DNA from: Nannocystales bacterium
GTDB taxonomy: Bacteria; Myxococcota_A; Polyangia; Nannocystales; Nannocystaceae
Direction: 5' to 3'
Assembly: GCA_050633305.1 (NCBI GenBank)
Contig: JBOEGF010000007.1
Location: forward strand, 286,428 to 350,427
Length of the DNA stretch: 64,000 bases
Of this stretch, positions 40,178-47,234 are shown piece after piece. How positions within the stretch are numbered: the stretch's first letter is position 1; the number at the start of each line of letters is the position of its first letter. The notes under the pieces are model-generated. The model saw nothing but the letters and a program-made list of their open reading frames with translations, was not told the DNA's origin and ran no database searches. The position numbers and the translations under genes were made by a program.

Positions 40178-41545
40178 ATGGCGCATTTCGAACTCGAGGA
40201 CGCATATCCGGACCAAGCCCGCATCAAAGTGATCGGCGTCGGCGGTGCCGGCGGTAACGCGGTCAACACGATGATCGGGCACAACGTTGAGGGCGTCGAG
40301 TTCTTGACCGCGAACACGGATGTTCAGGCGCTCGAAAAGAACCTGGCCCCTACACGCATTCAGCTTGGCAGCGCGATCACCCGGGGCCTCGGCGCCGGTG
40401 CCAACCCCGACCGAGGCCGCGAGGCCGCGCTCGAGAGCATTCAAGAGCTGACCGCAGCGCTTCAGGGCGCAGACATGGTCTTTGTGACCGCAGGCATGGG
40501 TGGGGGCACCGGAACCGGCGCCGCTCCGATCGTGGCCCAGGTGGCCCGCGAGTGTGGAGCGCTGTGCGTGGGCGTTGTCACCAAGCCGTTCCGCTTTGAG
40601 GGACGCCGCCGTGGACGTATCGCGGGCACCGGGATCGAGACCCTGGAGCAGGCGGTCGACACCCTCATCACGATCCCCAACGATCGTCTGCTCGATGTGA
40701 CCAGCACATCGACCAGCTTGCTCGACAGCTTCAAGCTCGCCGACGAGGTGCTTCAGCACGCGACGCAGGGCGTCTCGGACCTCATCACCATCCCGGGCAT
40801 CATCAACGTCGACTTTGCCGACGTGCGTACGATCATGTCCGACCAGGGCCGTGCCTTGATGGGAATGGGAATCGCCAGCGAGGAGGGGCGCGCTGTCGTG
40901 GCTGCCCAGCAGGCGATCAACAGCCCGCTGCTCGAGGACGTCACCATCGAAGGCGCGCAGGGCATCCTGATCAACATCACCTCGGGTCCGGACCTGAAGC
41001 TCCACGAAGTCGAAGAAGCGGCCTCACTGGTGCAGGAAGCGGCTCACGAGGACTGCAACATCATCTTTGGCGCCGTCATCGACGAGTCGATGGGCGAGAC
41101 GCTTCGCATCACGGTCATCGCGACTGGGTTCGATCAGCATCAGCCGGCCGAGGAAGTCCTCGAGCACGCGATTCAGAATCACGGGCACCGTCGCCAGAGC
41201 TCGATCGTGGCCGCCGGTTCCATGGGCCCGCGTGGTCGCCAGATGGTCACCCCCGGACCCGCGATGCGTCAGCCTCAGGGTGCCAACGCGTTCATGAACG
41301 CGGGGACGCAGCAAAAGCCCGCACCTTCGCTGACCCGTGGCGCTGTGCCGCGCGCCCAACAGCCGCAGTCGCGGGCACAGCAGCCTGCGCCTGCGGCTCA
41401 AGCCCAGCCGCAGCCCGAACCTCGCAACACGTCGTCCACCTCGAGTGGTGGCTGGCCTGCACCCGAGGTGACCTCCGGTGACCCGCAGGACATCCCCGCG
41501 TTCTTGCGACGCCGCCCCGACAACGGCGACGGCTTCATGCGATAG
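40178..41545 (+). CDS. ftsZ: Cell division protein FtsZ
   Basis: IKVIGVGGAGGNAVN, GMGGGTGTG, INVDFADV, C-terminal DIPAFLRR. Confidence 0.98.
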   Translation: MAHFELEDAYPDQARIKVIGVGGAGGNAVNTMIGHNVEGVEFLTANTDVQALEKNLAPTRIQLGSAITRGLGAGANPDRGREAALESIQELTAALQGADMVFVTAGMGGGTGTGAAPIVAQVARECGALCVGVVTKPFRFEGRRRGRIAGTGIETLEQAVDTLITIPNDRLLDVTSTSTSLLDSFKLADEVLQHATQGVSDLITIPGIINVDFADVRTIMSDQGRALMGMGIASEEGRAVVAAQQAINSPLLEDVTIEGAQGILINITSGPDLKLHEVEEAASLVQEAAHEDCNIIFGAVIDESMGETLRITVIATGFDQHQPAEEVLEHAIQNHGHRRQSSIVAAGSMGPRGRQMVTPGPAMRQPQGANAFMNAGTQQKPAPSLTRGAVPRAQQPQSRAQQPAPAAQAQPQPEPRNTSSTSSGGWPAPEVTSGDPQDIPAFLRRRPDNGDGFMR

Positions 41546-41608
41546 CCGTATGTCCCACGGACCAGCGGAGGCCACCGGGTCTCCGCCGCGGTCTTGTGGG
41601 AGACAACC

Positions 41609-41651
41609 AACGAAAGAAGGCGTCCCGGAATCCGGAACGCCTTCTGTCGTT
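41609..41651. terminator. Imperfect inverted repeat between convergent ftsZ and histone genes (probable terminator)
   Basis: AACGA(A)AGAAGGCGT(C)CCGGA-a-TCCGG(A)ACGCCTTCT(G)TCGTT. Confidence 0.55.
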
Positions 41652-41697
41652 CGTGTCTGCCGCGAGCGGCAAGCACGGGGTGTTGAACCGTAGAGGA

Positions 41698-41907
41698 CTA
41701 CAAGTCGTAGGGGCGGACGGTGCCGCGCTTGTTGTCTTGAGCGCGCTGGATGGCTGCCTCGAGGAGATCGTGGACCTTCTCGGACACGGCCTGGACCAGC
41801 TCACCGTCGCTACGCAGGCCGGCGTTGCGGACAACGTCCTTGACCTTGGAGCCGACGACAACCACTTCGCGGGGTTTCTTCTTGGATGCTTTCTTTGCCT
41901 TCGCCAT
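41698..41907 (-). CDS. Bacterial histone-fold protein with Lys-rich N-terminal tail (69 aa)
   Basis: MAKAKKASKKKPREVVVVGSKVKDVVRNAGLRSDGELVQAVSEKVHDLLEAAIQRAQDNKRGTVRPYDL. It shows alpha1 (VVGSKVK), a long alpha2 and the histone L2/alpha3 motif R-x-T-V-x-x-x-D. Purine-rich GAGAAG upstream of the ATG; codon usage is strongly biased. It is the C-terminal part of the 41698..42492 ORF call. Confidence 0.88.
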   Translation of the reverse strand: MAKAKKASKKKPREVVVVGSKVKDVVRNAGLRSDGELVQAVSEKVHDLLEAAIQRAQDNKRGTVRPYDL

Positions 41908-42209
41908 TGTCTTCTCGCCTGTCTGTTGTGGGCACGTGCTGCATGAACAGCTCGTTGCGATTGGATTGTAGGCAGGTCGGATCCGCTGACAACTGAAAAA
42001 TGCCCCCAATTGGCCGAATTCCGCAGGGGAGCGGATCTTGTGGTTTTGGGCGCACCTGCGCCGACCCCAGCCGGGTGGATTCTGAGGATGCGTAGAGGGG
42101 CTCTGCACCGGGCACCTGCGGCAGATGACGGTTTTTTGCCTTGAGGGCCGTGTCCCTGTATTGCCGAGATAAGGCCCTCTAACTGGCCGAATTGGCCCAA
42201 AAGACGACG

Positions 42210-43328
42210 ATGTCGAAGCGCACGCAGACCAAGAGTCGCCCACCACGGCGACGGGCCAAGAAGGCGACTTCGGCACGTGCGGGCAATCAGCGACGACAGC
42301 CCCGAGCGACCGCTGGTGGGGCTGGGGAGGCTCGTACCAACGCTTCTCCGCGCACTCGCGGCGGGGAGAAGATCCCCCCCGGAGCCTTCTCGCGGATGCC
42401 CAAATGGGCCCGAACGACCGCACGTTGGGGGTTGAGGCTCGGCATCGCCGGGGGCCTCTCCTACGGCGCGTTGCTGGGGGTTCAAGAGGCATACGACTAC
42501 GCGACCACGTCGCCGCGCTTCGAAGCCCGCGCGTTGCTGTTCGAGCCGACCTCGCATGTGAGCGACGCAGAGCTGCGGGCGCTGATGGGCATCACGCCCG
42601 GGACGAACATCCTGTCGCTCGAGGTCGAAGGCTTGGCCGCGGCCGTCTCCGAGCACCCTTGGGTCCGTCGTGCGAGCGTGACTCGAGAGCTGCCCGATAC
42701 GCTGATCGTCGAGGTCGAAGAGCACAGCCCACGCGCAGTCCTGCTCGCTGGGGACTTTTTCCTCGTTGGGGAAGACGGCATCCCGTTCAAGCCCTTGGAG
42801 TCCGGCGAGCGCGGGACGCTGCCGATCGTCACGGGGGTCGACGCTTCGCTGGTGTTCACCGAGCCCGAGCGGGCACAGAAGGTGGTGGCGCGAGCGCTGA
42901 CGATTCTCGAGGCCTACTCGACCAAGCAGCGGCCCCGCCTCAGTGAAGTCAACATCGACGAGACCGGCGCGGCGACGCTGTACACCGCTGACCTTGGAAG
43001 TCAGCTCCGCCTGGGCCGGACGAACATCGAAGCTGCGCTGACCCGATATGACGCCCTGCGTGCGGCGTTGGGTGAGGAGTCGGACAAGCTTGCCGTCGCG
43101 CATCTCGATGCGAACTCGGCCCTCGAGGGAAAAGACCGCATCGTCGCGAGTTTCTTCCCGACCAAAGATGCTCCGGAATTCGTCGAGGACGCCACGGAGC
43201 AAGCACACCAACGGGCGCTCGAGCACCGGCTTGCGCTGGACGCTGCGAAGGACGCAAAGAAACACAAGAAGAAGGGCTCCAAGAAGGGAGCCCGCGGCGG
43301 CAAGAGTCGTCTGCCGCGATACGAGTAA
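42210..43328 (+). CDS. ftsQ: Cell division protein FtsQ/DivIB
   Basis: Single TM, POTRA domain (GTNILSL, HPWVRRASVTRELPDTLIVEVEEH), LPIVTG; directly upstream of ftsA. Confidence 0.9.
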   Translation: MSKRTQTKSRPPRRRAKKATSARAGNQRRQPRATAGGAGEARTNASPRTRGGEKIPPGAFSRMPKWARTTARWGLRLGIAGGLSYGALLGVQEAYDYATTSPRFEARALLFEPTSHVSDAELRALMGITPGTNILSLEVEGLAAAVSEHPWVRRASVTRELPDTLIVEVEEHSPRAVLLAGDFFLVGEDGIPFKPLESGERGTLPIVTGVDASLVFTEPERAQKVVARALTILEAYSTKQRPRLSEVNIDETGAATLYTADLGSQLRLGRTNIEAALTRYDALRAALGEESDKLAVAHLDANSALEGKDRIVASFFPTKDAPEFVEDATEQAHQRALEHRLALDAAKDAKKHKKKGSKKGARGGKSRLPRYE

Positions 43329-43339
43329 ACGGAGCAGTC

Positions 43340-44623
43340 ATGGCCGAGGTTGGAGAAATCATCTGCGGATTGGACGTCGGAACCACCAAGGTGGCCGCGA
43401 TCATCGGTGAAGTCACCGAGAGCGGCATCGAGGTTCTCGGTGTTGGGACGAGCCCCTCCGAGGGCCTTCGACAGGGGGTCGTGGTTAACATCGAGGCGAC
43501 CACGGGCAGCATCGCTGCGGCCGTCGCAGAGGCCGAGCAGATGGCGGCTGCGGACGTGCAGTCGGTCTACGTGGGCATCGCAGGCGGCCACGTGCAGGGG
43601 TTCAATAGCTTTGGACAGGTCAGCATGCGCTCTCGCGAGGTCGAGGACATCGACGTCGCGCGGGTGATCGAGCAGGCCAAGGCGGTCAACATCCCGCTCG
43701 ACCGGAAGATCCTGCACACCATCCCGCTCGAGTACATCATCGACGGGCAGGGCCAGATCCGCGATCCCATCGGCATGAACGGCGTGCGCATGGAAGTGAA
43801 GGCTCATGTGCTGACCGCTTCGCTGACGTCGGTGCAGAACATCGTCAAGTGCTGCAACCGCGCGGGGCTCGAGGTGATCGAAGTCGTCCTCGAGCCGTTG
43901 GCGAGCTCGCGCGCGGTCCTGCATCAAGACGAGCGTGACCTTGGCGTTGCGATCATGGACATTGGTGGCGGCACGACCGACCTCTCGGTCTGCTCCGAGG
44001 GCAGCAACGTGTTCACCTCGGTGATCGTCATGGGCGGTCATCGCATCACCCAGGACGTCGCCCACGGGTTGCGGACCAGTGTGTCCGAGGCCGAGGCGAT
44101 CAAGCGCAAGCACGGCTGCGCACTGATCAGCATGGTGGAGGGGGACGATGTCATCGAGGTTCCCGGTGTCGGTCCCCGTCCTCCCCGCGAGTTCAAGCGC
44201 CGGTTCCTCGCGGAGATCATCGAGCCCAGGGTCGAGGAAATCCTCTTGATGGCGCAGCAAGAGCTGCTCGCCAGCGGGTGTGCGGAGCTGGCGGCCAGTG
44301 GCCTGGTGCTCACCGGGGGCGCCTCTGCGATGCCTGGAATGATCGAGATCGCCGAGGACATCTTCCAGATGCCGGTGCGTCAGGGCGTGCCGACGTCGAT
44401 CCCCGGCGGGGAACGACATGGCGTGGTGTCTCTCGCAGAGGGCGGTTTCGCCTCGATGGTGTCGGACCCCAAGTTCGCCACAGGGGTCGGTTTGGTCCTG
44501 TACGGCGCAACACACGAGCCGATGGCAGAGGCTGCGGAGCTCGTCCCTGGCAAACGGTCTGCTCGAGATGAAGGTCCTGGAGCGTTCCGTCGCATCACGG
44601 ACTGGGTTCGGGATATCTTCTAG
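43340..44623 (+). CDS. ftsA: Cell division protein FtsA
   Basis: GLDVGTTKV, GLRQGVVVNIE, DIGGGTTD, VLTGGAS, FATGVGL, C-terminal amphipathic FRRITDWVRDIF. Confidence 0.97.
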   Translation: MAEVGEIICGLDVGTTKVAAIIGEVTESGIEVLGVGTSPSEGLRQGVVVNIEATTGSIAAAVAEAEQMAAADVQSVYVGIAGGHVQGFNSFGQVSMRSREVEDIDVARVIEQAKAVNIPLDRKILHTIPLEYIIDGQGQIRDPIGMNGVRMEVKAHVLTASLTSVQNIVKCCNRAGLEVIEVVLEPLASSRAVLHQDERDLGVAIMDIGGGTTDLSVCSEGSNVFTSVIVMGGHRITQDVAHGLRTSVSEAEAIKRKHGCALISMVEGDDVIEVPGVGPRPPREFKRRFLAEIIEPRVEEILLMAQQELLASGCAELAASGLVLTGGASAMPGMIEIAEDIFQMPVRQGVPTSIPGGERHGVVSLAEGGFASMVSDPKFATGVGLVLYGATHEPMAEAAELVPGKRSARDEGPGAFRRITDWVRDIF

Positions 44624-45848: not shown

Positions 45849-47234
45849 CTAGGTCGCTTCGAGTTGCTTGATGAGCTTTGGCCCGATCCGTGTGACCGAG
45901 CCCGCACCCAGCGTCAGGACGAGGTCCCCTGAGCGGCACATGGACGCGAGCTGTTCGGGGAGGGCGTCGAAGTCGCTGACGTGTTGGGCGGGCCTGTCGG
46001 GGTGCCGCGCGCGGAGTGCGTTGGCCAGGGCCTCGCCGTCGATCCCCGGGATTGGCGACTCGCCCGCGGGGTGCACATCGGTGATGACCACGGTGTCTGC
46101 GTCGTCGAGGCAGGCGACGAATTCCTCGAAGTTGTCGCGCAGTCGGCTGTAGCGGTGCGGTTGGACGACCGCGACGAGCCGCCTGTCGCTGAAGCTGGTT
46201 CGTGCCCCGCCGATCGTGGCGCGAATCTCGGTGGGGTGGTGCGCATAGTCGTCCACCACCATCACGCCCTTGGCTTCGCCCTGGAGGGTGAAGCGGCGCT
46301 GTACGCCGTCAAAGTCGTTGAGCCCCTTTCGAATGGTTTCCGAGGGGATCTCGAACAGGTCTGCGATGGCGATGGCGGCCAGTGCATTGGCCACGTTGTG
46401 GACGCCGGGCATCGCGAGCGTGAAGGTGCCGCGGTCGTGACCTTTGCAGAGCACCCGGAACGAGGTCTTGGCGCCTTCGTGCCGCACTTCGGCAGCGACG
46501 TAGTCGGCGTCCGTGCGCGCGATCGCGTAGGTCGTGATCGACTTGTGCAGCTGGGGCAATACGCCCGCAACGTTGGGATCGTCGATGCACACGACCGCGC
46601 TGCCATAGAAGGGCACCCGGTTGGCGAACCCCACGAACGCCTCGAGGACTCGCTCGAGGGTGCCGTAGTGCTCGAGGTGCTCGTTGTCGATGTTGGTGAT
46701 GACGGCGAAGGTCGGGGTCAGATAGAGGAACGAGCCATCGCTTTCGTCGGCTTCGGCGAGCAGCAGGTCGCTTTGTCCGAGTCGCGCGTTGCTCCCGAAC
46801 TGGTTGACCTTGCCTCCGATGACGACGGTGGGGTCGAGGTCGGCGGCCGCGAGGATCGAGGCGATGAGGGAGGTGGTCGTGGTCTTGCCGTGTGACCCGG
46901 CGACCGCGATGCCTTCCTTGAGACGCATGAGTTCCGCGAGCATCTCCGCCCGGGGAATGACCGGAATCTTGCGCTGCCGCGCGGCGACCACCTCGGAGTT
47001 GTCACGCGTGACAGCGCTCGATGTGACCACGACATCTGCGTCGCCGAGGTACTCGGGGCTGTGACCGCGGTAGACCGTCGCCCCGAGCTCGGTGAGGCGA
47101 CGGGTCGTGTCGCTCTCGTTGATGTCCGTTCCGGTGACTCGGTAGCCGAGGTTGACCAACACTTCGGCGATGCCGCTCATGCCGATGCCGCCGATGCCGA
47201 CGAAGTGGATGTGGGTGTCGCGCTTGCGGAACAT
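45849..47234 (-). CDS. murC: UDP-N-acetylmuramate--L-alanine ligase
   Basis: IHFVGIGGIGMSGIA, GSHGKTTTT, EADESDGSFL, DDYAHHPTEI, QPHRYSR. Confidence 0.97.
   Translation of the reverse strand: MFRKRDTHIHFVGIGGIGMSGIAEVLVNLGYRVTGTDINESDTTRRLTELGATVYRGHSPEYLGDADVVVTSSAVTRDNSEVVAARQRKIPVIPRAEMLAELMRLKEGIAVAGSHGKTTTTSLIASILAAADLDPTVVIGGKVNQFGSNARLGQSDLLLAEADESDGSFLYLTPTFAVITNIDNEHLEHYGTLERVLEAFVGFANRVPFYGSAVVCIDDPNVAGVLPQLHKSITTYAIARTDADYVAAEVRHEGAKTSFRVLCKGHDRGTFTLAMPGVHNVANALAAIAIADLFEIPSETIRKGLNDFDGVQRRFTLQGEAKGVMVVDDYAHHPTEIRATIGGARTSFSDRRLVAVVQPHRYSRLRDNFEEFVACLDDADTVVITDVHPAGESPIPGIDGEALANALRARHPDRPAQHVSDFDALPEQLASMCRSGDLVLTLGAGSVTRIGPKLIKQLEAT

Follow-up and report, generated by a model that had tools for sequence, protein, structure and literature searches.

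The window, the whole 64,000-nucleotide stretch of Nannocystales DNA analysed here, carries a short gene read from the minus strand between ftsZ and ftsQ. The minus-strand translation of window positions 41698-41907 is MAKAKKASKKKPREVVVVGSKVKDVV...VSEKVHDLLEAAIQRAQDNKRGTVRPYDL followed by a stop codon, giving a protein of 69 amino acids that begins with a lysine-rich tail and continues into a histone fold; the plus-strand reading of the same interval is meaningless. The features of the locus are as follows.

40178..41545, plus strand: ftsZ, convergent conserved neighbour (Pfam Tubulin and FtsZ_C; synteny)
41609..41652, no strand assigned: strong hairpin in the gap between ftsZ and the histone gene, which converge on it (folding z-scores)
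41698..41907, minus strand: gene for a face-to-face (FtF) histone of 69 aa, the long-tailed paralogue termed type Z (translation, homology, predicted fold, four-copy model)
41701..41868, minus strand: alpha3-type histone fold, residues 14-69 (alignment to the Leptospira histone HLp, offset +6 to its native numbering)
41869..41907, minus strand: N-terminal tail, codons 1-13, with 6 Lys and 1 Arg, predicted to be disordered
41965..41992, minus strand: sigma70-like promoter TTGTCA-16-TACAAT, 57 nt before the histone ATG
42192..43328, plus strand: ftsQ, divergent conserved neighbour (Pfam POTRA_1 and FtsQ_DivIB_C; synteny)
43340-44623: ftsA, following ftsQ (Pfam FtsA)

The histone gene forms the end part of a 264-codon mechanical ORF (42492..41698), and the 69-aa protein that the first-pass annotation had placed at the end of an over-extended ORF, giving no strand, is found on the minus strand. 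A start at the ATG further upstream (42492) was rejected, since relatives differ in the length of the open frame ahead of the gene, from 4 to 500 codons, and the promoter-like site falls inside it. This site (41992-41965) was found once against 0.1 expected. The region following the stop codon (41600-41697) folds strongly, with z-scores of -6.06 on the minus and -4.32 on the plus strand, and its hairpin is probably the terminator of both ftsZ and the histone gene; it is absent from the list returned by the terminator scan. Given the orientation of the neighbours, the promoter-like site of its own and the strong hairpin after its stop codon, the gene looks like a stand-alone transcription unit. 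In three of four RNA runs single contigs from relatives, for which strand and level are not given, span the gene including its tail and start (41699-41917, 41698-41919 and 41704-41924, with 7, 5 and 21 differences, respectively). Within the window (40178-44623) ftsZ precedes ftsQ-ftsA instead of taking its usual position behind ftsA, an arrangement shared by genomes G062, G035 and G058, and murC is located on the opposite strand at 45849-47234.

Homology searches with the 69-aa protein returned 263 homologues at E ≤ 0.001 among 285 candidates, and a match was present in all 72 genomes of the order, so the ORF is not a chance one; in a sample of the phylum 64/301 genomes had any match. The named matches (Plesiocystis pacifica, Paraliomyxa miuraensis and Enhygromyxa) confirm the myxobacterial host that had been proposed, and by these names the family holding the long- and short-tailed paralogues described below is Nannocystaceae.

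Comparison with Pfam, one of the checks suggested by the first-pass annotation, placed DUF1931 barely above the cut-off and CBFD_NFYB_HMF under it. The best solved match by sequence was HLp (9QT0, E 8.3e-10), with E-values of 0.039-0.053 for HBb, Bd0055 and HTkC, and a profile of 109 sequences gave 3.5e-24 for HLp against about 1e-12 to 1e-13 for the other solved histones. The AlphaFold2 model (pLDDT 74.7, with segments 1-8 and 11-16 under 50) contains helices at 18-28 and 35-58 and a final helix of three residues, that is, the shortened alpha2 and one-turn alpha3 of the alpha3 histones. A fold search with this model returned HLp first, followed by HBb and HTkC, the three together forming the top nine matches, in agreement with the histone fold assigned earlier from the letters.

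HLp, the FtF histone of Leptospira perolatii (9QT0/9QT1/9QT2; PMC12701072), shares the alpha3 fold and 39 % identity over 54 columns with the protein studied here. In the text of Schwab 2024 (PMC11390915), what defines FtF histones is their ring tetramer together with a conserved Arg/Asn pair, which is missing in bacterial dimers. R55, N59 and R61 align to R49, N53 and R55, named as the tetramer residues of HLp in the sections on residue roles of PMC12701072, and R55 and N59 match R48/N52, the tetramer positions in the FtF profile. The R-x-T-V-x-x-x-D signature noted at first is present as R61-x-T63-V64-x-x-x-D68, in which R61, T63 and D68 fit the FtF RxTxxxxD motif and R61-D68 forms the clamp, corresponding to R55-D62 in HLp. 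R55, N59, R61, T63, D68 and K21 are invariant in 98/98 full-length genes of the family. The chain ends D68-L69-stop directly after the clamp, as HLp does with D62-F63, so that its C-terminal carboxylate would be able to pair with a conserved Arg, a pairing described for FtF histones (PMC11390915; bioRxiv 10.64898/2025.12.06.692711, relevant sections). Alignment to HLp nominates S20, K21, K23, R27, S33, G35, K60, T63 and R65 as candidate DNA-contact residues, and the HLp contacts S14, K15, K17, G29, K54, T57 and R59 are all kept. HLp differs in having a short N-terminal stretch that is not Lys-rich in its aligned part, and smc as its neighbour where ftsZ and ftsQ are found here. The archaeal FtF histone HTkC (PDB 9F2C; bioRxiv 10.64898/2025.12.06.692711) belongs to the same ring tetramer family (34 % identity) and, in the sections available, likewise depends on a conserved arginine for its tetramer (R45 in HTkC), but the clamp Asp is replaced by His in HTkC, and archaeal FtF histones are described in the text of PMC11390915 as generally without tails.

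We modelled four copies of the protein and obtained a score of 0.89 against 0.02 for the best control, on a scale whose mark is reached by 20/30 solved homo-pairs and 1/23 single chains and which is only roughly valid for four copies with a custom alignment. Across the runs contact agreement was at least 81 % and partner pLDDT at least 86. The multimer modelling proposed at the outset had concerned a handshake dimer; the model predicts this partner and, in addition, a second interface at residues 54-55, 58-59, 61, 65 and 67-68, the contacts displayed for one chain comprising the handshake partner plus one further interface. This modelled second interface coincides with the HLp tetramer surface and, as expected of FtF histones, joins dimer to dimer through the end of alpha2, L2 and alpha3. 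The high score may come through likeness to the solved HTkC and HLp complexes, and the N-terminal tail takes part in no confident interface of the model.

The first-pass annotation had likened the protein to Bd0055/HBb (PDB 8CMP, 8FVX), which the relevant parts of PMC11317129 and PMC10627809 describe as remaining dimeric and bending DNA, and which share with it the alpha3 fold, the RxTxxxxD clamp and about 30 % identity. That the protein is a dimer of this kind, bending or coating DNA, is very improbable. The common fold is compatible with it, as are the HBb structures at ranks 3-7 of the fold search with the same TM-score; however, the FtF R/N pair missing from such dimers is kept as R55 and N59, HLp scores far higher, and the model contains a confident dimer-dimer interface where bacterial dimers yield no confident multimer above the dimer. 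Judged on its residues and modelled structure, the 69-aa protein is a real bacterial histone of the ring-forming FtF type, with HLp as its closest relative by sequence, profile and fold.

The genome encodes three histone-fold genes, namely the 69-aa gene, a 64-aa paralogue following tsaE, which is 75 % identical to it and has an N-terminus of 8 residues, and a zinc-finger fusion. The last is a ZZ-type zinc-finger histone (L003:1174-1701, on contig C43 of the window's genome, G000), the finger domain of which was matched in 32/72 genomes of the order and the Cys/His spacing of which equals that of the ZZ-histone in the text of Schwab 2024 (PMC11390915) at 7/8 positions. We examined 114 loci and kept 98 full-length FtF genes of two classes, having dropped two contig-edge fragments, five divergent third-type genes and nine ZZ-histone loci; L083 was reassigned by hand from type T to type Z on synteny and tree. 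Type Z comprises 35 genes in 35 genomes, with an fts neighbour found for 29/35 (the ftsZ-ftsQ site) and a median tail of 13 residues and 6 Lys; type T comprises 63 genes in 63 genomes, with tsaE as neighbour for 62/63 and a median tail of 8 residues and 3 Lys. Counted over related genomes that are not independent of one another, both types occur in 28/72 genomes including that of the window, type Z alone in 7 and type T alone in 35, the remaining two having in one case only a fragment and in the other only the third type. None of the genomes of genera g10, g11, g14 and g17, a single-contig one among them, yielded type Z, and no remnant of it was detected near ftsZ/ftsQ in five stretches from four Z-less genomes (best E 1), of which those from G062 and G035 span the whole ftsZ-ftsQ interval. 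In genus g10 the histones L128-L132 represent a third, divergent type, whose tail is long and Lys-rich and which has a short extension at its C-terminus. As 35 genomes with type T yielded no type Z, the latter appears dispensable in much of the family: it is an accessory, patchily distributed copy and the short-tailed tsaE copy is nearly universal. A tree of the paralogues, built on 55 columns only, grouped type Z at 92/78, under the support mark, and its root is unsure. Plesiocystis pacifica has, by motif and tail, one of each (A6GJS9 long-tailed, A6GF99 short-tailed).

The two classes also differ in their residues and upstream regions. In 27/27 compared pairs the Z tail exceeds the T tail by 3-16 residues in length and by 3-6 in Lys count. 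Within the core, K60 is present in 34/35 type Z genes and 0/63 of type T, with G62 against S62 and A56 against C56 as further class-specific residues; the counterpart of K60 in HLp, K54, is reported among the simulation results of PMC12701072 as a persistent DNA contact. A promoter match of at least 10/12 was found upstream of 21/35 type Z and 0/63 type T genes in our own scan of 200 nt. These differences, the conserved site of each class and the two 75 % identical copies held by the genome of the window would suit a system of histone variants in which the paralogues are expressed under different conditions and mixed tetramers tune the chromatin, possibly with reversible Lys modification of the long tail. 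We regard this as possible but on balance doubtful, since the tails, at 11-23 residues without fixed sequence or length, are unlike a read-out code and four genera seem to do without type Z. The only candidate reader of such a tail, the ZZ-histone, is not supported by its occurrence, which does not track the long tail: type Z is present in 22/32 ZZ genomes, 13/35 Z genomes have no ZZ match, and the text of Schwab 2024 (PMC11390915) describes the ZZ binding pocket as not conserved. A fuller version, in which a long-tailed variant with a promoter of its own and an extra L2 lysine joins a short-tailed FtF histone present almost everywhere in the family, the two mixing in ring tetramers and changing chromatin with growth state while the tail lysines act as a switch, is quite doubtful. 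Neither an FtF paralogue pair nor a study of the Nannocystaceae was found in the literature searched, which gave only general papers, and no pair of long- and short-tailed paralogues in one bacterium is described in the portion of the PMC11390915 text covered, its supplementary tail figures being outside our scope; the long-tailed/short-tailed FtF pair within the family is new here in the sense that we did not find it described.

The six lysines counted initially in the first 13 residues of the protein are borne out by its translation, and a tail is present in the Myxococcota orthologues surveyed, as all 35 type Z genes have one. Such starts are rare but not unique in the genome, with at least 6 Lys in the first 13 codons of 3, and at least 5 in 21, of the 131,132 ATG-led open frames of 50 or more codons, many of whose ATGs are not true starts. 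Tails of type Z consist of 47 % Lys and 25 % Ala in variable order, which points to a tail that is conserved for charge and not for sequence. A start at a downstream GTG, leaving the tail untranslated, had been named as a possible objection. Each of the 35 type Z genes has, 11-23 codons upstream of the core, an in-frame ATG with an Ala codon after it, whereas a GTG at V15 occurs in only 7/35 and 22/35 have no GTG, TTG or ATG in the four codons from V15, so that the tail is most likely translated, an interpretation to which the RNA contigs of close relatives over start and tail lend weak support. A crude Shine-Dalgarno score of 5/6 was obtained at the ATG in 20 and at V15 in 11 of the 35 genes, and cannot choose between them since the tail DNA is purine-rich. 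In the genus of the window V15 is encoded by GTG, and 6/6 genomes have the same tail DNA, beside 27 synonymous columns in the core; nothing is left to count for dN/dS, and selection on the tail protein is not demonstrable within the genus. In favour of translation, 35/60 of the within-genus tail differences are at third positions.

The absence of synonymous change in the tail DNA within that genus would also be expected if the tail were mostly a by-product of translation-start design in a 66 % GC genome, with A-rich Lys/Ala codons keeping the 5′ mRNA unfolded and the peptide having little function. AAA accounts for 60/208 Lys codons in Z tails against 8/147 in cores, the fraction of A is 0.44 in tails and 0.19 in cores, the start region shows little folding (z 0.47) and unrelated proteins of the same genome also start Lys-rich. 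The short-tailed paralogue, however, shows this codon bias too, at a median of 3 Lys, from which it follows that initiation does not need six; 148/208 tail Lys codons are still AAG, and tails of 30 or more residues exist in other taxa, so we consider this explanation unlikely. Neither it nor the variant system excludes our favoured reading of a DNA-wrapping FtF tetramer with a tail that strengthens contact.

The tail-lessness of bacterial singlet histones put forward in the first-pass annotation fits the account in Hocher 2023 (PMC10627809, in part), according to which most lack long tails. Myxococcota are listed among the hosts of FtF histones in the text of Schwab 2024 (PMC11390915), in which positively charged tails are common in the bacterial members, mostly basic and without conserved sequence. 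Among the matches listed, 120/120 homologues were judged by eye to have a basic extension, and longer tails, some over 30 residues, are found in named records from Planctomycetota, Myxococcota and Deltaproteobacteria. The portion of Hu 2024 that includes Fig. 1A (PMC11317129) aligns the histones of Plesiocystis pacifica (A6GF99), Enhygromyxa salina and Nannocystis exedens. The short Lys-rich tail is therefore not new, and the gene confirms a published pattern of tailed FtF histones in Myxococcota. Its description as eukaryote-like stands for charge only: eukaryotic tails have conserved sequence and fixed modification sites, whereas these vary in length and order, and a search of the first 24 residues against the PDB, a weak test with so short a query, gave no match at E ≤ 10. 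Similar Lys/Ala-rich ends are found on unrelated proteins of the same genome. It also encodes a 240-aa HU/IHF-family protein with a long Lys/Thr/Ala-rich C-terminal extension (L148:1081-1803), one of its three HU/IHF proteins, and a 468-codon frame starting with histone-H1-like Lys/Ala repeats (G000:C8, plus strand from 359041). The genome's only match to ribosomal protein L3 (L149, contig C11 of G000) stands alone, outside an S10 operon.

The searches returned a number of other unusual histone-fold proteins. Several combine an N-terminus that by eye resembles a signal peptide with a near copy of the start of the Nannocystaceae short-tail histone, most of them as histone doublets (P0123, P0125, P0126, P0131, P0135, P0137, P0147, P0150, P0157, P0182, P0222 and L202:4932-5387); one of these genes sits by itself in a Gammaproteobacteria MAG. 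They are possibly exported, going by this N-terminus; nothing on such exported histones was found in the literature searched, and none is among the three histone-fold genes of the window's genome. In eight further chains a signal-peptide-like segment, an RNA recognition motif and an FtF-like histone occur together (P0124, P0127, P0140, P0152, P0160, P0167, P0232 and P0234), RRM_1 being confirmed in the 3/3 scanned; the 80 loci retained after scanning the genomes included no full-length fusion of this kind. P0151, P0219 and P0269, each a single-member cluster and possibly an assembly artefact, are mosaic ORFs in which a histone fragment lies beside fragments matching GroES, EF-Tu and a baseplate-hub protein, or within an RHS-like protein (1864 aa, histone-like piece at 1637-1672). 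A truncated Nannocystaceae-like histone piece, 76 % over its C-terminal part, is located in an Acidobacteriota MAG (L184:4833-5129).

Taken as a whole, the gene very probably encodes a stand-alone FtF histone, likely to be well expressed, whose ring tetramer wraps DNA and whose Lys/Ala tail strengthens the contact. Two chains would form the handshake dimer, and the ring tetramer would arise from two such dimers joined via R55/N59/R61 and the C-terminus. The available parts of the two reports on characterised FtF histones describe HLp as having a short N-terminus, being tetrameric and wrapping about 60 bp of DNA, with wrapping favoured over bridging in simulations (PMC12701072), and the archaeal HTkC as a ring tetramer that likewise wraps about 60 bp (bioRxiv 10.64898/2025.12.06.692711). 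By analogy with these homologues, the 69-aa histone most likely wraps some 60 bp round its tetramer with no sequence specificity. We infer both the expression level and the role of the tail: the flexible 13-residue Lys/Ala segment would add charge and most likely grip the backbone of wrapped or adjacent DNA, raising affinity or compaction. Leptospira is described in the text of PMC12701072 as having one histone and no HU, whereas three HU/IHF proteins and a ZZ-histone accompany the two FtF copies in the genome of the window, so that the 69-aa histone is not necessarily the chief chromatin protein, the role proposed for the histone in Leptospira.

A functional test of any bacterial histone tail was not found in the literature searched. 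The Nannocystaceae offer a natural pair of long- and short-tailed histones that coexist in one cell and whose cores are about 75 % identical. As a cultured species, Plesiocystis pacifica, has both A6GJS9 and A6GF99, the role of a bacterial histone tail is testable on this pair. The value of the gene lies in its use as a test case for bacterial histone tail function, and if bacteria do use tails and variants to regulate their chromatin, this would parallel the eukaryotic histone variants by convergence.
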